Source of the DNA: an uncultured Adlercreutzia sp.
Lineage (GTDB): Bacteria; Actinomycetota; Coriobacteriia; Coriobacteriales; Eggerthellaceae
NCBI RefSeq assembly: GCF_951801035.1
Contig: NZ_CATOKT010000002.1
DNA: 64,000 bases
Reading direction: 5' to 3' (one strand)
In this document: piece after piece, positions 49,928 to 62,607 of the stretch
Numbering within the stretch: the first letter of the stretch is position 1
Layout: each line of letters opens with the position of its first letter
The notes under the pieces: model-generated
Database searches by the model: none
Seen by the model: only the letters and a program-made list of their open reading frames with translations
What the model was told of the DNA's origin: nothing
Program-made: the position numbers and the translations under genes

Positions 49928-50089
49928 GGGTCCTCCTCGGGGCATCAGCTCGGGTTCGCTTAGTGGCTGCGCTCATTATAGAGAGCGAGCCCTGCTCGGG
50001 AGCTGTCGCGTCACATTTGGCACGGGCTTGAAATTCTCCCGTGCCTCTCGCAGGGCAACGTTCCTTGCGTAATGAGATTCTCGAAAAAT

Positions 50090-50115
50090 GGTCTGAAAAG
50101 TGCGGTTTAGCAGGA
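50090..50115 (+). repeat. 26-nt repeat GGTCTGAAAAGTGCGGTTTAGCAGGA
   Basis: 23/26 identical to 51627-51652, same orientation, on the opposite flank of paralog 2. Confidence 0.85.
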
Positions 50116-50183
50116 ACAGCGCAACAGCTTCCGTTAGTGACCTGCGGAAACAGCGCTCGCGCTTCAGGAGGTGGGGTAGGTTT

Positions 50184-50229
50184 GGCCTGGAATGCGCGGT
50201 TTAGCATGCTAAACCGCGCATTCCAGGCC
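50184..50229. repeat. perfect 46-nt palindrome GGCCTGGAATGCGCGGTTTAGCA|TGCTAAACCGCGCATTCCAGGCC
   Basis: Seen directly. Both-strand track ORFs give the identical peptide AWNARFSMLNRAFQA. Each half-site is related to the 26-nt repeat. Confidence 0.95.
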
Positions 50230-50508
50230 ATTTTTCGAGAATGGAGTTTGCCTTACTGATTGCTTGGCACTGTGTTTTGTCTGGCTCTAGATACTGCCAA
50301 GTTGTTTGCAGAAGAAGGATCGCACGCTGTGCTCTTGCTAGGTTTTCGTGCGCTGCGTCTCCGCTCGCTTTTCGTGCGCTGTGTCCCAGCGAGACCCTCG
50401 TGTACGGCGCCCTCGCTAGACTCTCGCGAGCTGTGCCATAATGAGGCCCTCATGCGCTACTCTCTGGCTCGGCTCTTGCGTGTTGCGATCCCGCCCGTTG
50501 CTCGCGTG

Positions 50509-51492
50509 TCAATTGGCTCCACGCATCCAGGTGCTGTTGAGATAACCGTCGAGGTTCCAGCCCAAGCTGAAGAGTAACTGCTGGTTGTGAGCGAAGGACG
50601 TGCTCTTTGGATTGAGGCGGCGTCCTCTGCGCTGGGCTGCCTGCTCGGCAATGTGATGCATGGCTTGCGGGCTGGCCAGCTGCTTTGTGGTGACCGTTAT
50701 CACCTTGAACCCTTTAGCCTCAAGGGCCAGACGTTTGGTGGCATCCCGAGAGATCTGCTGAGGGGTAAGGTGCTCGGCGTTTGAGTCGTACTCGATGACC
50801 AATTTGGACTCACGATGGAGCAGATCGGGTACGAGAGATCCCCGATCGGTCATGGTCTGGGTCTTGTGTCCCGAAGCGAGACGCTGGTTCGCCTGAAAGC
50901 CAGCCAGTTGAAAGCCGCCGAGTCGATAGGGGAGTTCGAGCACCATGGAGAGGAAGGATTCTGGTGGAGAGGCGGTTCTTTCGCTCAAGAACGGAAGTGT
51001 TTTCCGGGCTGCTTTTACGCCGGGAAGCCCCGCGTTTTTCTCGATGAAGTTTGCCAGTTTACGAGTTGTGGTGAGAGGCTGACGACTCTCCAGGCTCCCT
51101 CGCTGCAGTGGGTCTATGAAGAAGAGGCTGCACAAGGCATTGCCTGCTCGCACGAGCTCGTGAAGGGACATGCTTCGGGCAAGCTGTACAAAGCAAAGTT
51201 CGGGGCAAGCGATAAAGACCCCGCTTGCAATAAGCAGGAAAGGTTTGCCCGGCAGCGCGAATGTGCATGCGTGCGCGCGGACGCCCTCGATGGGCCAAGC
51301 GGTGCGTGTGGGGACGAGCAGCTCGTAGGGCTGGGGTATCTGTGGCAGTGTTTCGGCAAGATACTCTGCCAGTTGCAGCGTTGGGGCGCAGTCTTTGAGG
51401 GCGGACCGATCGACGCGCGAAAGACTGCCAACGTCCCATGGAAACGTCAGCCAGAATGAAAACGCCGATGTGCCGTAAAGGAAAGCTCTCAT
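50509..51492 (-). CDS. DUF559-like (Vsr-fold endonuclease-like C-terminus) protein, paralog 2
   Basis: LVIEYDSNAEHLTPQQISRDATKRLALEAKGFKVITVT and shared blocks CPELCFVQLARSMSLHELVRAGNALC / ASPPESFL with paralog 1. Confidence 0.65.
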   Translation of the reverse strand: MRAFLYGTSAFSFWLTFPWDVGSLSRVDRSALKDCAPTLQLAEYLAETLPQIPQPYELLVPTRTAWPIEGVRAHACTFALPGKPFLLIASGVFIACPELCFVQLARSMSLHELVRAGNALCSLFFIDPLQRGSLESRQPLTTTRKLANFIEKNAGLPGVKAARKTLPFLSERTASPPESFLSMVLELPYRLGGFQLAGFQANQRLASGHKTQTMTDRGSLVPDLLHRESKLVIEYDSNAEHLTPQQISRDATKRLALEAKGFKVITVTTKQLASPQAMHHIAEQAAQRRGRRLNPKSTSFAHNQQLLFSLGWNLDGYLNSTWMRGAN

Positions 51493-51626
51493 GAAGGGAG
51501 TGTAAGCGAGAATTTAGGAATGCGAGGAGGTTATTTGGGAGTTCACCATATTCCCCGAGAGTTGTGCGTGGCCTAGCTAGTTTCTGCTCTAGCAATTGGT
51601 GGGCTAGCCAGGGCGTTTGCAAAATT

Positions 51627-51652
51627 GTTCTGAAAAGTACGGTTTAGCAGGA
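51627..51652 (+). repeat. 26-nt repeat GTTCTGAAAAGTACGGTTTAGCAGGA
   Basis: Direct-repeat partner of 50090-50115. Confidence 0.85.
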
Positions 51653-51734
51653 GCGCTTGGGTTTTTCGTTTACAGACGAACTTTTGACCAGGGGCTATGC
51701 GGGGTGGCTACTCTCGCGCACGAAGAGGCGTTCT

Positions 51735-51770
51735 GAAATTGACGGTTTATCATGAGAAACCGTCAATTTC
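51735..51770. repeat. 14-bp inverted repeat GAAATTGACGGTTT-N8-AAACCGTCAATTTC
   Basis: Same family core (CGGTTTA..TAAACCG) as the 46-nt palindrome. Same relative position (about 80-95 nt after the 26-nt repeat). Confidence 0.85.
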
Positions 51771-52068
51771 GGGTCAATTTTGCTGCAGGGTGCATGGGGC
51801 ATGACGTTTTGTGCGGGGGCTTGGTCGTGGGGCGGGCGTGGGTGCGGGGCAGCTGTGGGGTGGATGTGAGCGGCGATGGGCCAAGGTTAATAGCAGCTCG
51901 GGGAGATGGCGGCTGAGGAAGCAGCCTCATGCATGATGATGCAAGACGCGCGTCGTGACGTGTGATAAGAGGAGCCGCGACCTTGAACAGACTCCCACTT
52001 CTTGGACAAAAGAAACAGGAGGCAGTCCAAAATGGTCGTGGCTCTTTTGGCGAAAGCTTGTAAGACGC

Positions 52069-53601: not shown

Positions 53602-54006
53602 CTAGGCACCCGTTTCGTCCGTGGGCTCCTCATCCGTGCCGCTCTCTGCCTTCGCCTCCGCTTCGGCGGCGGCTTGGGCGGTCTCCTCCTTGGCGGCGAA
53701 CTCTTCCAGCGCTGCCAGGAACTCGTCGGCCTCGGGGGCGTAGCTCAGGTCTTCAGGATGCGGAAGGGTACCGGCGGCTAAGGGGCCCAAGGGGCCGCCG
53801 AAACAGTCATCCCAATAGGCACGACCCAGCTGCGAGGCGGGCACCTCCGGGTCAAGCTCGAAGGCCTCGCACACCCAGCGCGGAATGGGCGTCAGGTTCA
53901 TGAGTCCGAACAAGAGCAGCAGACTGAGGAAGGTGCCGATTGCCTGCACGTTCTGGCGGCGCTTCACGGCGCGGTCCACAGCGTTGGTTTCGGGGGCAAT
54001 TCTCAC
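53602..54006 (-). CDS. small single-TM protein with acidic C-terminal tail (last gene of the six-gene operon)
   Basis: GTG start preceded by GGAGG, 3 nt after the kinase stop. TM segment IGTFLSLLLLFGLMNL. Tail EETAQAAAEAEAKAESGTDEEPTDE. Confidence 0.45.
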   Translation of the reverse strand: MRIAPETNAVDRAVKRRQNVQAIGTFLSLLLLFGLMNLTPIPRWVCEAFELDPEVPASQLGRAYWDDCFGGPLGPLAAGTLPHPEDLSYAPEADEFLAALEEFAAKEETAQAAAEAEAKAESGTDEEPTDETGA

Positions 54007-54009
54007 GGC

Positions 54010-56916
54010 CTACCTCCGGAAGATCGAGAAGACGAAGTAGATGACCAGCAGGACAAACGCGATGAAGCCCAGGGCCACGGCCAGATAGGGGATCACGCAG
54101 GCAATGGTCAGCAGGCAGAGTGTGACCATGGTGGGGTGTTCGCGCCGCAAAAAAGCAATGATGCCGAAGGACGCCGCGGCCAGGCCGCAGTAGGCGATGC
54201 CCCAGGACAACTGGTTCTCCAGAAACTCGAAGGAGAACTCGCTGGCAATATCGCTCCAGCTGTCGTAGCCGAGCCCCGCGGTGGTCACCAAGGTGATGCA
54301 GACGGCGGCCAGGGCGGCGCCGCCCCAGAAGAGCAGCTTCGTCAGGCGGGTGGACGTGGCGCGCGGGTGGCGCCGGGCGCGGGTCTTGGCAATGAACACG
54401 CTGGTGTCGCGCACGACGGGCACCGCGCCCTCCTCGGTGCCGGTAATCCAGCCCTCGGCCTCGCCGTCGCCGTCGGCAATGCGGAGTGCCTCCTTTCGCA
54501 GGGCGGTGGCGCGGCGACGGGTGCGTCCCTTGGTCTGCACGCCCTGGATGGCGAAGACGGCCTCGGCCAGTTTGGGCGCCAGCACGGAGGCCGCGGCCGC
54601 CAAAAAGCCCAGCAGTGCCAGGCCGGTGAAGGTGGCTGTGGGAATAGCTGAGATATCCAGCAGCGCATCGGGATAGACCGAGCCGGCGCCCATGCCGGTG
54701 GGCGACACCAGCACGGTGGAAGCCGTGGCCAACGGGTCTCCCGCATGGGTCACGCCGGATTTCCAGGTGCCGAAGGTGAAGCGGGGGACGAAGCAGCACA
54801 CGAACAGGACAAAGGCCAGGGCGGCGGCCAGCCGCGCGAAAAAGGCCGGCTTGGAAACCCCGTCGATGGGCGCTCCCTTGCGCTCGGCATCGGCCAGGGC
54901 GTCCACTTCGGTGGCCGCGTTCTCGAGGGCGGTTTTGGCGTCCTGGGCCAAGTCCCAGCTGCGATGGCCCCAGTTTGCCGCCTTGGCGCGGGCGACGGCT
55001 GCGGAATCGGCGGCCGAAGCCTCCATGAGTGCGCCGATAAAGCCTCGCGGTACGGGGCGGTCGAACAGCTCGCTGGAGAAATAGGCGGCGGCTGTGGCGG
55101 GTACGACGGTCTCATGGTCGCGCACGATGCCGAACCGGTGGAGGTGGGGGCTCGCCTCGCAATGGCTCTCCAGGGCTTCGGCGGCCTCGACCAGGGTGGC
55201 GCGCGCCTCGGCCGCTTCGGCCAAGGGCGCGGCGGGGTCGAGTGTCACGGCGCCCACGGCGCGCACCAGGCGCTCGCCCGCGGGGGTGCGCCCCTGGTAG
55301 AGCCGTAGGTTTTCCTGTACCCACACGGCCCAGCCGGCGCTGTCGTAGCGGAAGGCGAAGGTGCGCACGGCGCCCGCGTCATCGGTGGTGGCTTCCAGTA
55401 CGGCCAGGGTGCGGTCGACGCGATCGGCCAAGGGAGCCTCGTCGTGGGTGCGCAGCCACGCAAGGGCCGTGTTCGCCACTTCCGGGAAGCCGGCCACGGC
55501 CACGACGCCCAGCACGTCGCGCAGGGCATCTTCGTCGCCTACGATGCGATAGAAGCCCAGGGGCGTGGCGGCTATGCGGGTGAACAGCGCGCCCACGGCG
55601 GCCCGTCCCGGCACCAGGGCCTCGCCCTTCCAGAACACCACCTCGCGGGCCGGATCGATCAGGGCCAAGGCGCGGGAGAGCCCCAAATCCTCGTTGCCGT
55701 CCAGAGCGTCGGGCAGGGTGTCCGGTTCCTTATCGGTCAGATCGTTCAAGGCCACGGCCAGGTCGGTTTCGCCCAGTTTGCGGAAGTAGTCCTCCAAGCC
55801 GTGGGTGTACAGGTGCCGTTTGGCTTTCTCCCAGTTCTGGGCCAGAGCCGTCACCAAGGCGGCACGGCTTTCGTAGACCGTGCCTTCGAACTGGTAGCCC
55901 GCGGGCCCGGCCATGGCGGCGGCATCCAGTGGGTCACGGTAGGTGAAGGCGGCAGGATTGGCCAGCCAGCGCTGGATGTCCTCATAGCCCAGGCGTCCCT
56001 TGGCGTGGGCGTAGGTCAGGCCGTAGATGAGCGCGCCAAGGCTCTCGTGCTCGGGGGCGCGGGCGGCGAAGGCCACGGGACGGCCGCCGGCCAACACGGC
56101 GGACAGGTCGTCGCCGTCGATGAGCGTCTGATGAGGGTGGCGGCCGCCGTTGTACAGCGTCCAGATGGTGTAGCCCAGGGCGTACCAGTCGTTCTCGCGC
56201 TGCACCACCGAGGAGTGGGGCGAGTAGCCGGGGGTGCGGCGGTCCACCTTGGTGGCGCCGGTGTCGCGGCCCTCTTCCAGTACCGACGAGATGCCGAAAT
56301 CGCCCAGCACCACGGCGTCTCCCAGGGTGTAGAGGTTCTTCGGCTTCACGTCGCGGTGCACAATGCCGCGCTCGTGTAAAAGGTGCAGGGCGCTGGCCGT
56401 TTGGGGAATGACGCGGTCGCGCAAATCCTCGTAGGTGATGTCCGCGGCGTGGGAGAAGCGGTCGACGCACAGCGGCATGACGGCCACATCGTAGGTGGTC
56501 TCGCCGAGCCCCGGCACCGTGTCGCGCACCTGGCCCGTGGCGTAGAGCGGCATGAGATGTGTTTCCTCGAAATGGCGCTCGCCTAAGGGGTGCTCGGTCA
56601 TGAGCGAGCGCAGGTAGGCCAGCACCGTACGCCGGGCCATGCGGTCGCGCACGGCGTGGGGCTGGAAGGCAATCTTCGCCGCATAGATGCGGCCGTCCTC
56701 GTCGGTGGCCCGCACCACGGTGCCCTGGCCGCCGGCGCCGATGACGTCGGCTGTGTGCAGGGTGAAGGCGCGATCGCCGTCGCCGGTGAAGGGCAGGTCG
56801 TCGCCTGACAGCAGCGGGGCGGTACTGTCCAAGTCCACCACCGTGGGCTCGGCGTCCACGATGGTGGGCGCCACGGCGCGGCGCGGCTCGCGGGATATGC
56901 GATCGCTAGCAGCCAT
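54010..56916 (-). CDS. Ser/Thr protein kinase with ~600-aa uncharacterised central region and polytopic C-terminus
   Basis: AAKIAF (VAIK-like), HRDVKPKNLY, GDFGISS, TPGYSP. At least 5 C-terminal TM segments (LAAALAFVLFVCCFVP; GLALLGFLAAAASVLAP; FWGGAALAAVCITLVTTA; GIAYCGLAAASFGIIAF; VTLCLLTIACVIPYLAVALGFIAFVLLVIYFVF). Start at Met16 (56916); 56961 is also possible. Confidence 0.85.
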   Translation of the reverse strand: MAASDRISREPRRAVAPTIVDAEPTVVDLDSTAPLLSGDDLPFTGDGDRAFTLHTADVIGAGGQGTVVRATDEDGRIYAAKIAFQPHAVRDRMARRTVLAYLRSLMTEHPLGERHFEETHLMPLYATGQVRDTVPGLGETTYDVAVMPLCVDRFSHAADITYEDLRDRVIPQTASALHLLHERGIVHRDVKPKNLYTLGDAVVLGDFGISSVLEEGRDTGATKVDRRTPGYSPHSSVVQRENDWYALGYTIWTLYNGGRHPHQTLIDGDDLSAVLAGGRPVAFAARAPEHESLGALIYGLTYAHAKGRLGYEDIQRWLANPAAFTYRDPLDAAAMAGPAGYQFEGTVYESRAALVTALAQNWEKAKRHLYTHGLEDYFRKLGETDLAVALNDLTDKEPDTLPDALDGNEDLGLSRALALIDPAREVVFWKGEALVPGRAAVGALFTRIAATPLGFYRIVGDEDALRDVLGVVAVAGFPEVANTALAWLRTHDEAPLADRVDRTLAVLEATTDDAGAVRTFAFRYDSAGWAVWVQENLRLYQGRTPAGERLVRAVGAVTLDPAAPLAEAAEARATLVEAAEALESHCEASPHLHRFGIVRDHETVVPATAAAYFSSELFDRPVPRGFIGALMEASAADSAAVARAKAANWGHRSWDLAQDAKTALENAATEVDALADAERKGAPIDGVSKPAFFARLAAALAFVLFVCCFVPRFTFGTWKSGVTHAGDPLATASTVLVSPTGMGAGSVYPDALLDISAIPTATFTGLALLGFLAAAASVLAPKLAEAVFAIQGVQTKGRTRRRATALRKEALRIADGDGEAEGWITGTEEGAVPVVRDTSVFIAKTRARRHPRATSTRLTKLLFWGGAALAAVCITLVTTAGLGYDSWSDIASEFSFEFLENQLSWGIAYCGLAAASFGIIAFLRREHPTMVTLCLLTIACVIPYLAVALGFIAFVLLVIYFVFSIFRR

Positions 56917-59041
56917 GGGGGCCTTCCGACGTCGGCTGGACGGGGGCGACAGGTTCGGCATCGTCGTGCGGGGCCGGCTGTGGCGTCCCCGTTGCGGCCG
57001 CCTGCGGTGTCAAGCGCCCCGTGGCGGCGGCTCCGCCCACGAAAGGCGCGCGCCCGCTGTCGGGGTTGGCGCGGCTGAACGTCAGGCCCGCGCTGTCTAC
57101 CCGCACCTCCACGGCTTCGCCCGCTTGTACGTTGGCGTCGAAGATGAAGGAGGCTAGGGGGTTCAGGTAGGCGTTCTCCACCAGGTTGCCGATGCCGCGG
57201 CCGCCGTTCTCGCGCACGGCCGGCGCCAGGGCCTGCTCGGCCAGCCACTGCACGGCAGCGTCGGAGGGCGCCACGGTGATGCCGCAGCGCGTGCGCACGT
57301 TGCGGTTGATCTTCCCCAGCTGGGCGTCAAGGATCAGGCGCGAGGCCTCGGGGGAGATGTAGTCGAACACCACGATGTTGTCACCGATGCGGTTGAGCAC
57401 TTCGGGCTTGAAGTGCGTGGCCATGGCGGCCTCTACTTTCGCCTGGATGGCGTCGTAGGGCTCGCCCGGCTCCACGATGTTGCGGCGGCCGATGATGCGC
57501 CCATGCTCATCGAGCACCTCTTCGGAAATGCCCACGTTGCTGGTGAAGAAGATGAGGGTTTCGCTGAAGTACACCGTCTGGCCCTGGCCGTCGGTCATGC
57601 GGCCGTCCTCCAGAATTTGCAGGAACTTGTCCATGATGGAGGGATGGGCCTTCTCCACCTCGTCGAACAGCAGCACCGAGAAGGGGTTGGCGCGCACGGC
57701 GTTGGTCAGCTGGCCGCCGGCCTCGTAGCCCACGTAGCCAGGCGGGGCGCCGAAGAGCTTCTGATCGGCGTTCTCGGCGGCGTACTCGGACATGTCGAAA
57801 CGCAGGTAGCTGCGCTCGTCGCCGAACAAAAGTTCGGTAACGGCCTTCACCATCTCGGTTTTGCCCGTGCCCGTGGGGCCGGCTAGGAGCAGGACGCCCT
57901 TGGGCTTGGTGCCCGAGGAGTGCTGCATGCCGGAGAACCCGAGCACCGAGCGCTTCAGCACCGAGACGATCTTCTCGATGGCGGCCTCCTGGCCCTTCAC
58001 GCGGCGGCGCAGGGCGTCGTCGGGGCGGTCGCGCAGCTTGTCGAGCATGGCGGTCCACTGGTTCTCGCGGATGCCGTACTTGTACAGGTCCACCAGCTCG
58101 GGAATGGCCGCGGGCTCGGTGCCTCCGCGGGCGTAGAGGCGGCGCAGCTCGTCGAGCTCGGCCAGCTTCATGGCGTCGGTGGTGTCGATGAACTTGCTGC
58201 GCACCTTGGCCTGGGCCGGGTCGTGCAGGTCGGGGAAGGCCACGTCGATGAAGGCCTCGCGGGCCGGCCGGTCGGGGTTGGGCAGCGAGATAACGCGCAC
58301 GTCGGGGTTGCCGCGCAAAAGCCACGAGGGCAGGTCGGAGGCTTTGTTCACCACTAGCACCAGGGTGTTCACGTGGGAGCCGTCGCCGCGGATGGCGTCT
58401 TGGGCGCCGATGAGGAGGTTCATGAACACGGCGTTCTCCTCGGGGGTGAGGTCCTCGGGGCTCGAGGCCACGCGGCTGGCCAGATCGAAGACGCAGGCGA
58501 TGGAGGAGGGGCTGGGGGCGGCTGGCGCGGGAGAGTTGCCGGCGGCGTTGGCCGTGGCGGCGTCTGTGGTGACCTGGGCGCTTGGTGCCGCAGGTGCCGC
58601 AGGTGCCGCGGGAGCCGTCTCGGTGTCAAGGCGCCGCGACAGGGCGGCGCGCACCAGGAGCGAGTCGTGCACCAGGCGGTTGGCGGCGAAGGGCTGTTGG
58701 CGACTGGCGGGATCGCTGGCCGGATTGAGTGCCTCGGCCTCGCGCGAGATGAGCTCCGCCTGACGCTCGGCCGCCTGAGCCAAGGCGCGGGCCTCGCCGG
58801 TGCCCGTCGGGTCGGTAATGCCGCGCAAGGGGTCGACGAACAGGAAGCGATAGGGCCGGGGGCGGTTGCCGTCAAAGCCGGCGAACAGGAGGGGAAGCAC
58901 CTGGTTGAGCCCAAGGAACTGGGGTTCGGCCTGATCGGCGGCCTGCCAGGGATAGCAATCGGCCACGTTGCCTTCCAGAACGAAGATGGGCTTGATGCCG
59001 ACGAAGTTGTCTAGCTCGCGTTGCCAAGTGGGTGCGGTCAT
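56906..59041 (-). CDS. AAA+ ATPase: degenerate N-terminal AAA-like module plus ClpA/ClpB-D2-type active module
   Basis: C-terminal half: LLLAGPTGTGKTEMVKAV, LLFDEVEKAHPSIMDKFLQILEDGRMTD, IFFTSNVG, NRIGDNIVVFDY. N-terminal half has AAA-like strand/lid patterns (VLVVNKASDLPSWLLRGNPDVRVISLPNPDRPAREAF) but no GxxGxGK[ST]. Confidence 0.85.
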   Translation of the reverse strand: MTAPTWQRELDNFVGIKPIFVLEGNVADCYPWQAADQAEPQFLGLNQVLPLLFAGFDGNRPRPYRFLFVDPLRGITDPTGTGEARALAQAAERQAELISREAEALNPASDPASRQQPFAANRLVHDSLLVRAALSRRLDTETAPAAPAAPAAPSAQVTTDAATANAAGNSPAPAAPSPSSIACVFDLASRVASSPEDLTPEENAVFMNLLIGAQDAIRGDGSHVNTLVLVVNKASDLPSWLLRGNPDVRVISLPNPDRPAREAFIDVAFPDLHDPAQAKVRSKFIDTTDAMKLAELDELRRLYARGGTEPAAIPELVDLYKYGIRENQWTAMLDKLRDRPDDALRRRVKGQEAAIEKIVSVLKRSVLGFSGMQHSSGTKPKGVLLLAGPTGTGKTEMVKAVTELLFGDERSYLRFDMSEYAAENADQKLFGAPPGYVGYEAGGQLTNAVRANPFSVLLFDEVEKAHPSIMDKFLQILEDGRMTDGQGQTVYFSETLIFFTSNVGISEEVLDEHGRIIGRRNIVEPGEPYDAIQAKVEAAMATHFKPEVLNRIGDNIVVFDYISPEASRLILDAQLGKINRNVRTRCGITVAPSDAAVQWLAEQALAPAVRENGGRGIGNLVENAYLNPLASFIFDANVQAGEAVEVRVDSAGLTFSRANPDSGRAPFVGGAAATGRLTPQAAATGTPQPAPHDDAEPVAPVQPTSEGPHGC

Positions 59042-59703
59042 GGCCGTTCCTCCTTCGGGGGCCGCCCGTGGATGCCGATGGAAAGCGCGCGGCCGTCGAA
59101 CACGGCGTTTTGAATGCGCCGTGGCTTCTGCTCCTCTTCATGATAAAGGTTTTCCAGGTGGGGCGAGCGCACGATCACCCGCTGATTGGTGGATCCGCGC
59201 AGGCCGCAACGCCCATCGTTGAGGGCGGCCACGTAAGGACCGTCGATGATGACGTCAATGAGGGGTGCGAGTGCGGTGGGAAGGCGGCGGCGCAGAAGGG
59301 ATCCGGCGGTCGATGGAGAGCAGCCATCGAGGCTGGTCTGCGGGGGAAGGAGGCCGATTGGCGCACCCCTTGAGGAGAGTGCCTCGTCTTCCAGCACGAA
59401 TCCAGTGTACACCAGGATGTCGTCGAAGGCAGGACGTATGGCCGTCAGGACTTCGGCCAGGTCATCAGCTTGCTCCAAGGGGTCGCCGCCGGTGATGGTA
59501 AGGCGGTGGGCGCCGGTGCGGGCCGCCACGCCCAAGAGGAGTTCGGTTACGCGCTCGTTGGGAAGAGCGGCATCAGGGCGTGTCTCCCATAACTCGGGAT
59601 TCGCGCAACCGGGGCAGTGCTTGGTGCAGCCGCAGGTCCACACGACGATGCGCTCGCCAGGGCCGAGGGTGGTCACCGGGTAGTAAAGGCGATCGACGAA
59701 CAT
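59038..59703 (-). CDS. NrdG/PflA-like radical-SAM activase (4Fe-4S single-cluster domain)
   Basis: YYPVTTLGPGERIVVWTCGCTKHCPGCANPELW with CX3CX2C (codons at 59605-59628), and ITGGDPLEQ. Start at Met134 of track ORF 59038..60102. ATGA overlap with the AAA+ gene. Confidence 0.8.
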   Translation of the reverse strand: MFVDRLYYPVTTLGPGERIVVWTCGCTKHCPGCANPELWETRPDAALPNERVTELLLGVAARTGAHRLTITGGDPLEQADDLAEVLTAIRPAFDDILVYTGFVLEDEALSSRGAPIGLLPPQTSLDGCSPSTAGSLLRRRLPTALAPLIDVIIDGPYVAALNDGRCGLRGSTNQRVIVRSPHLENLYHEEEQKPRRIQNAVFDGRALSIGIHGRPPKEERP

Positions 59704-59705
59704 AG

Positions 59706-60506
59706 TTAGGCGTGGGGAAGGGGCCGCGGCGCGATGCGGGCGATATGCCGCGCGTCCAGGGGATCTTGGCAGAAGGAGCACTGGGCGACGCGCTCTTCGG
59801 ATGAGGCCACCGCGTGTTCGGTGCCGCAGACGGGGCAGCGGACAGACCAGGCAAGGGGTGGTTCCGGGGTGATGACGCTTTGGCCGGGCGCGTCTACGTC
59901 CCCGAGGAGCACCGCGACGGGTGCGCCAGTGGCGTTGCGGGCGGCCGCCGCGGTGGTGGCGTCGGAGCCGGTTGTCGTGGCGATGGCGCCAGCTTCTGAG
60001 GTAGCTACGGCGGCTAAAGACACGCGGAACACCATATCGGCCAGCTTCAGCGTTTCGCCCCCGAAGAGGGGCTCGGGCTCGCCGGTGCGCAAGGTGGTCC
60101 ACGATCCGCCCCGCTCTACGGACGAACCGTTACGCCCCAGATGCTCGATGGTCCAGTGGCCCTCCTCGTCGCAGACCACGAGAGCATGGACGCCGGAGAC
60201 GCGGGGTGAGAAGGAGTCGGGCTCGAAATCGCCGGCGCGGCCGAGGAGGCCGCCCGGGGCGGGGATGGAGATTGCGCCGCCGCGCGCATTTTCAAGTACG
60301 AGGGTGCGGGGAGCGCAGGGGGCACTGGAGGCGCGGGAGGCTTCCGCAGCAGGGGGTGCGTCCGGGGGCGTGGGGAATGAGTCCGCGTCCAGGGACGTGT
60401 TGGCACCGCCGTCGCTGCCGCTGCTGACGGCATTCAGGGTGCGGCCGCAGGCAACGCAGGTGGCTGCCGTGTCGGCGTTGGCGAATCCGCAGGGGCAAAG
60501 CTGCAT
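59706..60506 (-). CDS. FHA-domain protein flanked by N- and C-terminal zinc ribbons
   Basis: CPCGFANADTAATCVACG; FHA core LLGRAGD...SPRVSGVHALV...IEHLGRNGSSV...LKLADMVFRV; C-terminal CPVCG...CSFC. Confidence 0.8.
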   Translation of the reverse strand: MQLCPCGFANADTAATCVACGRTLNAVSSGSDGGANTSLDADSFPTPPDAPPAAEASRASSAPCAPRTLVLENARGGAISIPAPGGLLGRAGDFEPDSFSPRVSGVHALVVCDEEGHWTIEHLGRNGSSVERGGSWTTLRTGEPEPLFGGETLKLADMVFRVSLAAVATSEAGAIATTTGSDATTAAAARNATGAPVAVLLGDVDAPGQSVITPEPPLAWSVRCPVCGTEHAVASSEERVAQCSFCQDPLDARHIARIAPRPLPHA

Positions 60507-60507
60507 G

Positions 60508-61929
60508 CTACCTCATCTCCCTGGCGACCCCACCACTGCGCTTGCGACGACGGTGTGATGGGCTGGCGGGGGAAGCGCCGGCTGCGGAGGTGCCTGCCGT
60601 TTCGTGCTGCTGGATGCTCGCCCCCTGTTCGCCGTGCTCCTGCACTAATTCGCGGCAGAAAGCCTCAGAGGGCTCGGCACGATACTGGACGCGGTTGGTA
60701 ATGCCAAAGGCGGCCAGGTCGGCGGCTATCTCGTCATAGACGGCGCAGAAGTCGTGCTGGTTGGCCAGGAGCTCGTCGGTGCGCGTTCCCGGTGCAGCGG
60801 CTTCCAGGCAGACGGCCGCGTTTTCGGAGATGCTGTCGATACCGCTGGGCAGCCCTGTCACTTGTAGCATGAGATCGCCGCTGTCGGACAGGAAGGCGTG
60901 GAGTCCTTCCGTGGCCCCCTCGCGTCCAAAGAGGCGATGGTCGCCCGTCAGGTCGCGCCCCATGGTAACGGAGCGGCTGATGGTGTAGCCGTGACGCGCC
61001 ATGACCGTGTCGATGCAGGCCTGCAAGTAGGTGTTGCGGTCGGCCTCCTCCAGTTGGCGAAGCAGCATGTCGCGATAGGCCGCTGCCTCTTCCAAGGTGG
61101 CGCAGGAGGGCGCAGCGGCAACGGTGCAGCCCCGAGCGTGCAGCTGGCTCGTCGCGTCTTCGATGGCAGCTGTCAGCTCCCCGAAGGCGTGCGCATTCGA
61201 TTCCATGGCCGGCAAAAGCAACGTAAGCTGAGCGATGGTGTCAGGCTGCAGATTGCGCACGGTTTCCCGAAGAAGGGCCCGATCAGACGGTAGCGTATGG
61301 GGGCTCTCCAGAAGCGCCAGGGCTCGCTGGGCGGCCGCCTGGTCGTCGGCCGCGTCGCCACGGCTGGCCGTCACAGGGGAGCTTTTCGCTGTCGCCCCGT
61401 TGCTTGATATGCTCTTTGCGTCGGACGCGACAACCGTCCCGTCATCCGATGCGCTCGCCGTCTCCTTCGCGATGGCCGCTTCGTCTTCTGCAACCACCTC
61501 TTTCCGCTTAGCCGCCTCGGCCAGAAGCGCCAGGAAGTCGGCTTGATCCGCGCGGGAAGCCGCTCGGGCCCGGGCGCGCTCGGCGCGGGTGGCGAAGGGG
61601 GTGGTGTCGTTTTCGAAGGCGTCGGCGATACTGGCGGCCGAGCGGCCACACTGAGCCGCCGAGGCCGCGGAATCTTCCATGGCGGCGCACGGCTCAAAGG
61701 CGCATTCGGCATCCAAACGTGCCAACGCCGTGGCCGCTAGGGCACGTACCGATTCCGCAGCATCCTGTAGGGAAGGATCATCCCCGAAGGCGGCGAGCAG
61801 CGCATCTCGGCGAGCAAGAATGCGGGCTCGCGCTTTCGAGCGGGCGTTGTTCACGTCGGAGCGCAATGCGGCCAGCTGCGCCTGGATGCGCCGCTCGATT
61901 TCCAGCTGACTTGTCTTCGGCCCGCTCAT
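60508..61929 (-). CDS. hypothetical protein (first gene of the six-gene operon), Ala/charged helical N-half plus globular C-half
   Basis: 473 aa from Met19 of the track ORF (RBS AGGGGA). No motif I recognise. Its stop lies 1 nt before the FHA gene start. Confidence 0.5.
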   Translation of the reverse strand: MSGPKTSQLEIERRIQAQLAALRSDVNNARSKARARILARRDALLAAFGDDPSLQDAAESVRALAATALARLDAECAFEPCAAMEDSAASAAQCGRSAASIADAFENDTTPFATRAERARARAASRADQADFLALLAEAAKRKEVVAEDEAAIAKETASASDDGTVVASDAKSISSNGATAKSSPVTASRGDAADDQAAAQRALALLESPHTLPSDRALLRETVRNLQPDTIAQLTLLLPAMESNAHAFGELTAAIEDATSQLHARGCTVAAAPSCATLEEAAAYRDMLLRQLEEADRNTYLQACIDTVMARHGYTISRSVTMGRDLTGDHRLFGREGATEGLHAFLSDSGDLMLQVTGLPSGIDSISENAAVCLEAAAPGTRTDELLANQHDFCAVYDEIAADLAAFGITNRVQYRAEPSEAFCRELVQEHGEQGASIQQHETAGTSAAGASPASPSHRRRKRSGGVAREMR

Positions 61930-61998
61930 GGGAGTTCCCCTTTGCAACAAATAACGGTAACCGCCATTATAAAGGGAAAACAAGCGAGAGGAGTGCCG

Positions 61999-62607
61999 GT
62001 GAGCTTACCCGAGATGACCTATACGGCTGACGACTACGATGTTGACGCCCATGTGCCGGCGGCCGAGGCGCTGCGACGTCTGGAAGAGGGCAATCGCATT
62101 TACGTGGAGGCTCTGGATCACGAGCGCGATCTTTCGCCGGCGCGCATTCAGGAGCTGTTCGAGAAGGGACAGCGACCCTTCGCCTGCGTTATCACGTGTG
62201 CCGATTCCCGGGTGGTGCCCGAGCATATCTTCATGGCGGGGCTCGGGGAGCTCTTCGTCATCCGCGTGGCGGGCAACGTGGTGGGGCCGACGGAGCTGGC
62301 CAGTGCGGTGTACGCCTGCGAGCATTTGCACACGCGGCTTCTGCTGGTGCTGGGTCATACGCACTGTGGCGCCATAAAGGCCGCCCTCGATGGCGAGGGC
62401 GGCCCCGTAGCGGCCATTACCGACCGCATTGTGGCGGCCTTGGGCGATGTTCATGATCCCTACGAGGCCAGCGTGCTGAACGCCCAGGCGTCCGTGGCGG
62501 CGTTGCGTCAGTCGCCGGAAATTGCACGGCTTGAGGCCGAGGAGGGACTCATGGTGGGCAGTGCGGTGTACCACACCCACTGCGGCGTGGTGGATTTCCT
62601 TGCTTAG
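61999..62607 (+). CDS. beta-class carbonic anhydrase
   Basis: CADSRVVPEHIF, FVIRVAGNVV, LGHTHCGAIKAAL. GTG at 61999 preceded by AGAGGAG; ATG at 62014 is an alternative. Confidence 0.85.
   Translation: MSLPEMTYTADDYDVDAHVPAAEALRRLEEGNRIYVEALDHERDLSPARIQELFEKGQRPFACVITCADSRVVPEHIFMAGLGELFVIRVAGNVVGPTELASAVYACEHLHTRLLLVLGHTHCGAIKAALDGEGGPVAAITDRIVAALGDVHDPYEASVLNAQASVAALRQSPEIARLEAEEGLMVGSAVYHTHCGVVDFLA

Follow-up and report, generated by a model that had tools for sequence, protein, structure and literature searches.

A radical-SAM, AAA+ and Ser/Thr kinase gene cassette in an uncultured Adlercreutzia sp. and its distant relatives: a candidate phosphorylation-gated conflict system

Genes and domains of the operon

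The DNA analysed here, referred to throughout as the window, is a stretch of 64,000 nt from an uncultured Adlercreutzia sp. (assembly GCF_951801035.1, contig NZ_CATOKT010000002.1). Positions 53602-61929 hold six consecutive open reading frames (ORFs) on the minus strand, g1 to g6, whose products include an FHA protein, a radical S-adenosylmethionine (radical-SAM) enzyme, an AAA+ protein and a Ser/Thr kinase (Table 1). An initial annotation, made from the sequence alone, had described these genes as a single translationally coupled operon, and the junctions read directly from the window sequence are all as it gave them. The TAG of g1 ends at 60508 and is separated by 1 nt from the ATG of g2 at 60506, while the TAA of g2 ends at 59706 and leaves a 2-base spacer before the ATG of g3 at 59703. 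An ATGA at 59038-59041 is common to g3 and g4. The overlap of g4 and g5 amounts to 11 nt (56906-56916), given a kinase ATG at 56916; this start, which yields 968 aa, is the choice of independent gene callers on identical contigs, and an alternative longer g5 ORF begins at 56961. Finally, the TAG of g5 ends at 54010 and the GTG of g6 follows three bases on, at 54006, with GGAGG just upstream of it. Internal terminator signals do not exceed chance between 53300 and 62200 (4 found versus 4.7 expected), a scan for promoters and terminators being uninformative in this high-GC actinobacterium.

Table 1. Operon features by window position (MAG, metagenome-assembled genome; aa, amino acids)
Feature	Position	Strand	Description
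g1 (A)	60508..61929	-	473 aa; new family
g2	59706..60506	-	266 aa; Zn-ribbon, FHA, Zn-ribbon
g3	59038..59703	-	221 aa; NrdG/PFL-activase-type radical-SAM enzyme
g4, N-terminal half	58022..59041	-	aa 1-340; family-specific domain, no Pfam family
g4, C-terminal half	56906..58021	-	ClpB-D2-type AAA+ module plus D2-small
g5	54010..56916	-	968-aa Hanks-type Ser/Thr kinase; Pkinase 59 bits
g6	53602..54006	-	134 aa; single-pass membrane protein, acidic tail
Divergent intergenic region	61930..61999		~70 bp between g1 and a carbonic-anhydrase (Pro_CA) gene, from gene calls in identical MAG contigs; presumed operon promoter region

Profiles, alignment and hydropathy confirm the domains that the initial annotation had named, namely an FHA domain with zinc ribbons, an NrdG-like activase, a ClpB-D2 module and a polytopic Hanks-type kinase. 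The two proteins in which it had recognised no motif, g1 and g6, likewise match no family in Pfam, NCBIfam, PADLOC or PHROGs. We will refer to the product of g1 and to its family as A.

A starts with the residues M-S-G-P-K, continues as a long helical region (aa 8-312) and ends in a beta-rich C-terminal domain (aa 317-430) followed by a disordered, basic tail (RRRKR..REMR). An AlphaFold2 (AF2) model with a predicted local distance difference test (pLDDT) score of 78 depicts the same parts, as a long helical assembly, a small beta-rich domain and the disordered basic tail. Foldseek finds no significant match to this fold in PDB (best E 0.44, to JetA) or BFVD (best E 0.06), and the apolipoproteins that appear among PDB profile matches reflect helical composition and not homology. 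The MSGPK N-terminus is present in 55 of 60 full-length A homologues. Of the remaining five, two are ORFs called too long, at loci where the A protein does start with MSGPK, and another two begin MSGP[IV]. Among 42 non-redundant sequences, positions G314, Y315, C395 and G409 are 100% conserved and F394, which is paired with the invariant C395, is 98% conserved; yet the conserved positions total only ~14, including those of MSGPK, GY and FC. As judged from this alignment, the constraint on A is very unusual. A domain like that of a glycyl-radical enzyme (GRE) was considered for A and rejected, there being no Pfam match, an hhalign probability of 0.1 against GrcA, and no RVxGY motif; the idea is retained solely as a lead on mechanism. 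Two members of the family, at L047:1395-2855 and L048:1076-2530, start with MSGP[IV] and continue into a long hydrophobic stretch; these may represent a membrane-anchored variant of A.

The FHA domain of g2 scores 21.6 bits in Pfam against a cut-off of 20.7. Alignment of the family reveals CxC..CxxC zinc ribbons at both ends of the protein, with C4, C6, C17 and C20 invariant, and the FHA signature residues G89, R90, S104 and N126, the residues that bind phospho-threonine being conserved. On these grounds g2 is presumed to be a phospho-threonine reader or adaptor. In one MAG that is otherwise identical (GCA_949103035.1, L002:4297-5087), gene calling splits the FHA gene into ORFs of 126 and 128 aa; a frameshift, faulty assembly and a natural knockout are possible causes.

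The radical-SAM enzyme g3 has, in the family alignment, the motifs CX3CX2C (C26, C30, C33), GGDP and LIDGPY..LRGSxNQR, and it matches Fer4_12 (86 bits) and Radical_SAM (31.6 bits) in Pfam. NrdG and PFL-AE are its best matches, although it stays below every equivalog cut-off; against NrdG model TIGR02491, for instance, it scores 85 bits where the cut-off is 126. The nearest solved structure is that of the PFL-activating enzyme (3c8f, E 8.7e-12), with YydG, a peptide epimerase, and then QueE (E 3.5e-4) well behind. Matches in PHROGs are confined to the NrdG (phrog_626, 88 bits) and QueE families. Because the best matches are NrdG, phage NrdG and the PFL-activating enzyme, similarity places g3 in the protein- or peptide-directed, hydrogen-abstracting branch of these enzymes. 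The second-best structure, YydG, brought up a role in the maturation of ribosomally synthesized and post-translationally modified peptides, which was rejected: A is ~450 aa long, and no protease or exporter is linked. An insertion of ~30 aa in g3, at about aa 107-140 (window 59285-59385), is rich in Pro, Ser and Gly and lies between the LVYTG strand and LIDGPY; it is absent from eight other aligned family members, which come from Slackia, five other phyla and plasmids.

The initial annotation had called this activase an orphan. As far as a GRE partner is concerned, this holds, given that none of the six reading frames of the window contains the glycyl-radical motif (RVxG[YFW]) and that no protein of the operon matches the Gly_radical domain of Pfam. 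The co-conserved A protein is nevertheless its likely partner, so that g3 is probably not an orphan at all.

The AAA+ protein g4 consists of two unlike halves. The C-terminal half is a ClpB-D2-type module with Walker A (GPTGTGKT), pore loop (GYVG), Walker B (LLFDEVEK), sensor-1 (TSN) and sensor-2 (GGRG) motifs, and it carries the family-specific form of the last, NGGRGIGN. Pfam matches (AAA_2, 169 bits; ClpB_D2-small, 30 bits) are confined to aa 340-650, and the match to ClpB model TIGR03346 (259 bits, cut-off 1232) places aa 341-655 on model positions 560-852 only. As read from its motifs, g4 has no conserved IG[FL] loop of the kind that docks on ClpP, so nothing suggests that it feeds a ClpP-type protease.

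The N-terminal half of g4 is conserved from Actinomycetota to Proteobacteria. Its Walker A position reads LEGNVxD, and it retains the region from sensor-1 to 'PxPD..R' ('NTLVLVVNK..DLP.W...NP.VR.I..P.PD...R') and a 'T[DE]G' in the lid. The suggestion of a 'pseudo-D1' in the initial annotation draws support from this reading and from a weak profile match to VAT D1 (E 0.078), which covers exactly the stretch of the degenerate module; on the other side, hhalign of the N-terminal half against the D2 of the same protein is negative, and the AF2 model, built from a shallow alignment, has a pLDDT of 48 and is too poor for use. On balance, the N-terminal half is likely to be a degenerate classical AAA module unable to bind ATP.

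In the kinase g5, the catalytic domain (~aa 55-330) has GxGxxG, AAK, HRDVKPKN and DFG motifs. The central region matches no family, and the C-terminal third is polytopic by hydropathy, with 5-6 hydrophobic segments between aa 692 and 963. The kinase domain is common to all orthologues and the sensor regions differ: the non-catalytic part spans the membrane several times in Actinomycetota and Fusobacterium, is soluble in Clostridia and Fibrobacterota, where the protein has ~700 aa, and is replaced by a separate WD40/RCC1-like protein in Cloacimonadota. Such swapping between lineages would be typical behaviour for a sensor. The membrane-sensing kinase envisaged in the initial annotation thus fits the polytopic protein of the window but is not universal, other members having soluble sensor regions. 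With their motifs intact, the kinase, the FHA protein, the radical-SAM enzyme and the D2 module of the AAA+ protein all look active.

The small protein g6 has one hydrophobic segment (aa 20-38). Its homologues are limited to the Adlercreutzia/Enterorhabdus loci of the Eggerthellaceae, and in Slackia an unrelated 91-aa transmembrane protein occupies the same position. Because of this restriction to Eggerthellaceae, g6 is a clade-specific appendage that lies outside the conserved cassette.

Conservation and genomic setting of the cassette

A search for homologues of the radical-SAM enzyme returned 698 matches, whose contigs were examined for context. In Slackia heliotrinireducens, the genes encode, in order, proteins of 448 and 228 aa, the radical-SAM enzyme, the AAA+ protein, a PP2C phosphatase, a kinase of 999 aa and the 91-aa protein; in a Cloacimonadota MAG, the order is 477 aa, 216 aa, radical-SAM enzyme, AAA+ protein, PP2C and kinase. 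All-against-all BLAST identifies the five core proteins as orthologous, including g1 and the AAA+ protein at full length. A scan with the AAA+ N-terminal half over 185,579 species, each represented by a single genome, yielded 19 loci, in Eggerthellaceae, Coriobacteriaceae, Oscillospiraceae, other Clostridia, Fibrimonadales, Cloacimonadota, Fusobacterium and Succinivibrionaceae. Nearly all of these have the order A-FHA-radical-SAM-AAA+-kinase, usually with PP2C just before the kinase, and the two that are permuted (from Succinivibrionaceae and Clostridia) still possess every component. The cassette therefore occurs in at least six phyla (Actinomycetota, Bacillota, Fibrobacterota, Cloacimonadota, Fusobacteriota and Pseudomonadota). 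The initial annotation had made its proposal depend on orthologues being syntenic in other genomes, and across these phyla they are. Its six-gene unit corresponds to a real cassette, with two corrections: g6 is clade-specific, and a PP2C gene that the window lacks belongs to the cassette elsewhere.

Wider searches extend this picture. A metagenome scan keyed on the sensor-2 motif NGGRGIGN found more than 525 relatives, and in a HMMER search of 1.84 billion representatives, 335 clusters fell into the family of the AAA+ N-terminal half at E<=1e-3. A word-indexed search with this half had recovered 9 close relatives only, as candidates were swamped by low-complexity stretches of Ala and Pro; reaching the family required the full HMMER search along with DNA-pattern scans.

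Components were counted over 44 non-identical loci with enough flanking DNA. A and the radical-SAM enzyme are each found in 43 of the 44, the FHA protein in 41, the kinase in 40 and PP2C in 32. The sole locus to depart entirely from this pattern is from a Clostridia MAG (L029:9980-11872), where a full-length AAA+ protein has no other cassette genes detected within ~9 kb. The recurrence of the arrangement in dozens of unrelated genomes is far beyond chance.

The window has all the features that define the cassette, namely an A protein with both MSGPK and the GY/FC residues, an adjacent NrdG-like radical-SAM enzyme, and an AAA+ protein with the N-terminal half and the NGGRGIGN motif of the family. 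The gene after that for the AAA+ protein does not encode PP2C, and no PP2C gene, remnant or second copy occurs anywhere in the window. The phosphatase is also absent from all other Adlercreutzia/Enterorhabdus loci, from the metagenome locus L050 and from proteobacterial loci that lack the FHA protein. As it belongs to the cassette almost everywhere else, its absence here is, to judge from this distribution, a clade-specific loss. The version in the window is accordingly the cassette without the phosphatase and with a small membrane protein gained.

Further contexts were obtained by tblastn of the AAA+ N-terminal half against plasmids. On plasmids of Rhizobium, Caballeronia and Photobacterium, A, the AAA+ protein and the radical-SAM enzyme occur as a triad without FHA protein or PP2C. 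Megaplasmids of Rhizobium and Caballeronia have the order AAA+ protein, radical-SAM enzyme, giant protein and ~450-aa protein, the last of which starts with MSGPK in Rhizobium. The Photobacterium plasmid encodes a helicase, a PIN protein, an A-like protein, the AAA+ protein and the radical-SAM enzyme, and an integrase adjoins. Since the triad is retained at loci without FHA protein or PP2C, its members are the constant elements; the core is A, radical-SAM enzyme and AAA+ protein, and the layer of kinase, FHA protein and phosphatase is one of several regulatory front-ends. Genes beyond the cassette are not conserved, and most members come from anaerobes of gut, rumen and digesters. A phage origin was considered and rejected, given that 50,697 phage records gave no tblastn match and PHROGs only the NrdG and QueE families already noted.

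The exact proteins of the window recur across many samples and MAGs of uncultured Adlercreutzia sp., where source annotations go no further than 'hypothetical protein', 'FHA domain-containing protein' and 'AAA family ATPase'. The operon of the window is neighboured by genes for carbonic anhydrase, DUF711 and a two-component system. A related Adlercreutzia-like genome has the cassette at this chromosomal position, between carbonic anhydrase and DUF711, in a 1.3-Mb contig (L008, ENA contig_4111), where the AAA+ and kinase genes are split into several ORFs, probably through long-read indel errors. Its gene for the small membrane protein is followed, as in L007, by an additional gene of 222 aa and by one of the Xre helix-turn-helix type.

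Several observations concern the rest of the window. The GC content of the operon (0.68-0.69 over 54001-60000) is the maximum of the window, and that of the adjoining downstream block (0.566 over 50001-52000) is the minimum, a contrast that may stem from the Ala/Pro richness of the encoded proteins or mark a boundary in composition. Beyond DUF711, two genes downstream from the operon, a minus-strand ORF of 327 aa (50509-51492) matches no Pfam family; its C-terminus (…VIEYDSNAEHL…KRLALEAKGFKVITV) bears, by eye, a likeness to DUF559/Vsr-like endonuclease domains, and the gene is also present in identical MAG contigs. On the plus strand, positions 1717-2070 show weak kinase-like similarity to residues 169-281 of g5 (26% identity, E 5e-4).

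Defence context, proposed mechanism and competing explanations

Several relatives of the cassette are joined to genes of known defence type. In Rhizobium and Caballeronia, the triad brackets one protein of 2086-2102 aa that combines a kinase, DUF4011, an SF1 helicase and REase_MTES_1575; the Rhizobium protein scores 462 bits against the PDC-S37 model of PADLOC and 217 bits against Hhe. The triad of Photobacterium follows a MkoA-like helicase (310 bits) and the PIN protein, near the integrase. In Aristaeella lactis, a 44-kb element carries integrases, a WYL regulator and the cassette (L117:15062-23243, NZ_CP069422.1), whose first kinase gene is overlapped by 8 nt by the gene of a 2151-aa DUF4011 helicase-nuclease (PDC-S37 1308 bits, Hhe 545 bits); this cassette also has a DUF6273 protein and, after PP2C, a second kinase of 952 aa. 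Altogether, a helicase of the Hhe/PDC-S37 type is found in 11 of the 44 well-flanked loci, and helicase, kinase, A, FHA protein, radical-SAM enzyme, AAA+ protein and PP2C make up the second common layout in metagenomes. Elsewhere, the flanking genes include those for a TIR-TPR protein, PDC-M26A/DUF2357, HerA-like ATPases and an MBL-fold protein with matches to the models of LmuA and Avs1a. Across phyla the cassette is distributed patchily, with only the 335 clusters noted above among 1.84 billion representatives. Two unrelated type-I loci (L021:13809-19900 and L093:9545-14753) have in common an extra block just after the kinase, at 46-57% identity, which encodes a protein of ~300 aa and then a trio made up of a 238/243-aa protein, a HerA/FtsK-like ATPase of 832/836 aa and a ~290-345-aa product; the block may extend the cassette or represent another system that travels with it.

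Between the two functions suggested in the initial annotation, the conflict or defence module is supported by genomic context, in that relatives are fused or coupled to helicase-nucleases of the Hhe/PDC-S37 and Mokosh-like kinds, and the envelope or protein-quality module has gained no support. Fusion and coupling to helicase-nucleases, along with residence on plasmids and integrase-bearing elements, are what favour a defence reading. What is observed is the gene set and its conservation, the identity of its domains, catalytic motifs that are intact and an association with defence genes. From this we suggest, with moderate confidence, that a widespread and previously undescribed conflict cassette with phospho-threonine-gated logic is represented in Adlercreutzia by this operon. 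Its role in conflict would most likely be directed against phages or mobile elements.

Such a cassette might operate as follows, each single step being put forward with much lower confidence than the reading as a whole. A cue would activate the Hanks-type kinase, in the window by way of its polytopic membrane sensor. The FHA adaptor would then dock on the phosphorylated kinase or substrate and recruit or license the pair of AAA+ protein and radical-SAM enzyme. The AAA+ protein is pictured as a two-tier machine in which the first ring is inactive and the second, of the ClpB-D2 type, translocates and is without a loop for docking a protease; this second ring would engage a protein substrate, for which A is the best candidate, through either its disordered basic tail or its MSGPK N-terminus. 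From the engaged protein, the radical-SAM enzyme would abstract hydrogen, most plausibly at an invariant glycine, and the complex would thereby be switched to its effector state. Where PP2C is present, it would reset the phospho-switch; the lack of PP2C in the window suggests constitutive priming of the system there, or else a reset by some phosphatase whose gene lies elsewhere. A bolder version, which we regard as a long shot, makes A a new radical-bearing protein and the effector of phosphorylation-gated immunity, the radical-SAM enzyme and the unfoldase together installing a glycyl (and then thiyl) radical on an invariant glycine. Candidate sites would be Gly3 of MSGPK, or Gly314-Tyr315 beside Phe394-Cys395.

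A number of observations weigh against a conflict cassette of this kind. The link to defence is guilt by proximity, and no component matched a complete PADLOC system. The Adlercreutzia locus is flanked by housekeeping genes (carbonic anhydrase and DUF711), occupies the same chromosomal place between them in a related Adlercreutzia-like contig, and has no integrase or helicase nearby, and for these reasons it looks vertically kept rather than island-borne. In the contig in question, the AAA+ protein is 78% identical over a short aligned stretch only, and the radical-SAM gene is equal in length to the ~66%-identical form of L007. The Slackia copy, too, sits among housekeeping genes at a stable position. 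With regard to the radical chemistry, A has, as described above, no similarity to glycyl-radical domains in Pfam or in comparison with GrcA; a large residue precedes its GY where GREs have a small one, and it has no invariant threonine. Radical-SAM enzymes are, moreover, oxygen-sensitive, yet the triad is also present in aerobes such as Rhizobium.

Under one competing explanation, the cassette is an accessory or activation module for a helicase-nuclease of the Hhe/PDC-S37 type, which would be the real effector, and the helicase-less operon of Adlercreutzia is either a remnant or acts on a helicase encoded elsewhere. The fusion of helicase-nuclease to kinase in Rhizobium and Caballeronia, the translational coupling in Aristaeella and the presence of a helicase in a quarter of the well-flanked loci all speak for such a dependence, as does the status of Hhe-type proteins as single-gene systems in PADLOC, which implies that they are able to be effectors alone. 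In three quarters of the well-flanked loci, however, spanning five phyla, no helicase is found within ~9 kb and the cassette is intact and translationally coupled, which argues for an output of its own; and the operon of the window shows no pseudogenisation, with identical copies in many samples. We consider this explanation unlikely.

Equally doubtful is a role in the physiology of anaerobes and outside conflict, as a module for signalling or protein remodelling that serves for example in envelope or redox stress, where the membrane kinase would sense a cue and the AAA+/radical-SAM pair would repair, activate or remodel a cellular protein. The housekeeping neighbours and stable chromosomal position of the Adlercreutzia and Slackia loci would suit such a module, and so would the polytopic membrane kinase, the metabolic service normally performed by relatives of NrdG and the PFL activase, and the origin of most members in gut, rumen and digester anaerobes. 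It accords poorly with a sporadic distribution (19 loci among 185,579 species, and the 335 clusters), with plasmids and integrase-bearing elements as carriers, with the repeated coupling of the triad to nuclease-helicases and PIN, and with sensor domains that are swapped among lineages; nor is a GRE or other obvious client linked.

It is less probable again that the output of the radical-SAM enzyme is a small-molecule toxin or signal, for example a nucleotide modified as by viperin or QueE, with A and the AAA+ protein serving as scaffold or regulator and not as radical substrate. To our knowledge, the only validated radical-SAM defence enzymes are the prokaryotic viperins, which act on nucleotides. 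The Photobacterium orthologue weakly matches the pVip models of PADLOC (31 bits), and QueE is the third-best relative in PDB and PHROGs. The window protein itself, however, reaches only 14 bits against pVip, and its affinity is strongest to the protein-directed activases NrdG (85 bits, with phrog_626 at 88 bits) and PFL-AE (E 8.7e-12), far ahead of QueE (E 3.5e-4). It keeps the hallmark motifs of NrdG, its minimal core of ~190 aa is like that of activases for which a protein partner is the substrate, and its gene always adjoins that of the unfoldase.

Should the conflict cassette indeed act in defence, it would represent a new principle, that of a protein-directed radical-SAM enzyme and an AAA+ unfoldase under the control of Ser/Thr phosphorylation, and it would account for the companions of many Hhe/PDC-S37-type helicase-nucleases. 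If A bears a radical, this would be the first protein-radical antiviral mechanism and the first unfoldase-coupled radical-SAM enzyme. For enzymology, the cassette offers a relative of glycyl-radical activases with a new, genetically defined partner, the A family with its few conserved residues. It is common in anaerobes of the human gut, rumen and termite gut, and Adlercreutzia, a genus that includes equol producers, is one in which phage-host biology is almost unexplored. Even if its role is not in defence, a module spread over six phyla with two proteins of unknown fold is a defined target for functional discovery.

Comparison with known systems

The initial annotation had found that the operon matches none it knew, and profile searches agree: Pfam, NCBIfam, PADLOC v2 and PHROGs give matches to generic domains only, no library places the gene set in a described pathway, and PDB holds no description of it. 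None was found either in the full-text literature covered, which stops short of subscription-only papers and newer defence catalogues; papers from the Aravind lab mention these domains, in unrelated systems. The matches in PADLOC are partial. Those of g4 are to DolB and PDC-M37B and cover the P-loop core only (aa 342-514), those of the kinase domain are to mad6, MkoA and PD-T4-6, and A, the FHA protein and g6 have none. No full-length match to all components of Dodola, PDC-M37, Mokosh, MADS, PD-T4-6 or pVip was obtained.

The type VI secretion system (T6SS), with Fha1/TagH, PpkA, PppA and ClpV, resembles the cassette in placing a Hanks-type kinase, PP2C and an FHA adaptor beside a Clp/Hsp100-type AAA+ protein. 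Differences are that the AAA+ protein of the cassette has a probably dead first module within a family-specific N-terminal half, that the radical-SAM enzyme and A are obligatory, and that the hosts include Gram-positive phyla. That the cassette serves to regulate or recycle some secretion or contractile machinery of this type, as yet unrecognised, is very improbable, for, apart from the four component types in common, the likeness comes down to a weak match of g2 to TagH (TIGR03354, 27 bits, cut-off 120) and a match of g4 to ClpV1 (ClpV/TssH, TIGR03345) that covers D2 only, scores 217 bits against a cut-off of 885 and is exceeded by that to ClpB, while no sheath, tube, baseplate or other structural genes are present among the Pfam-annotated neighbours of loci L001-L012 or in the plasmid annotations, and the neighbours are not conserved. 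The initial annotation was right to call the resemblance superficial. It had also set the operon apart from the actinobacterial division cluster (FhaA/FhaB-PstP-RodA-PbpA-PknA/B), a distinction that stands, because the window has no PP2C and the neighbours are different ones.

Another combination of Hanks-type kinase and PP2C, with a third protein, is TerY-P, which is reportedly a defence unit (Gao et al. 2020). The third protein there is, as far as we know, the vWA protein TerY, with no FHA, AAA+ or radical-SAM component.

Like the activases of GREs, g3 has the CX3CX2C motif, the GGDP/GGEP SAM motif and the C-terminal 'DGxY..RGSxNQ' motif of the NrdG type. Unlike GRE and activase pairs, in which the partner would be a Gly_radical or RVxGY protein, the cassette links its radical-SAM enzyme to no such protein, and the constant partners are an AAA+ unfoldase and A. 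The D2 and D2-small regions of g4 are similar to those of ClpB/Hsp100, of DolB from Dodola and of PDC-M37B, and the GYVG pore loop is intact; unlike ClpB/Hsp100, g4 has no ClpN domain, active D1 or M-domain, and D2 alone aligns (aa 341-655). None of the genes that partner the ATPase in Dodola or PDC-M37 is present here.

There are also ties to Hhe/PDC-S37 and Mokosh, to whose helicase-nucleases relatives of the cassette are fused or coupled, and the kinase domain of the cassette resembles those attached to MkoA and mad6. Unlike the cassette, Hhe and PDC-S37 are matched in PADLOC as single-gene models, with neither a subunit letter nor partners of the A, radical-SAM or AAA+ kind, and a protein combining DUF4011, SF1 helicase and REase_MTES_1575 is absent from the operon of the window and its flanks of ~10 kb. 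Set against all of these systems, the composition of the cassette is categorically new, bringing together known domain families and two proteins without recognisable relatives.

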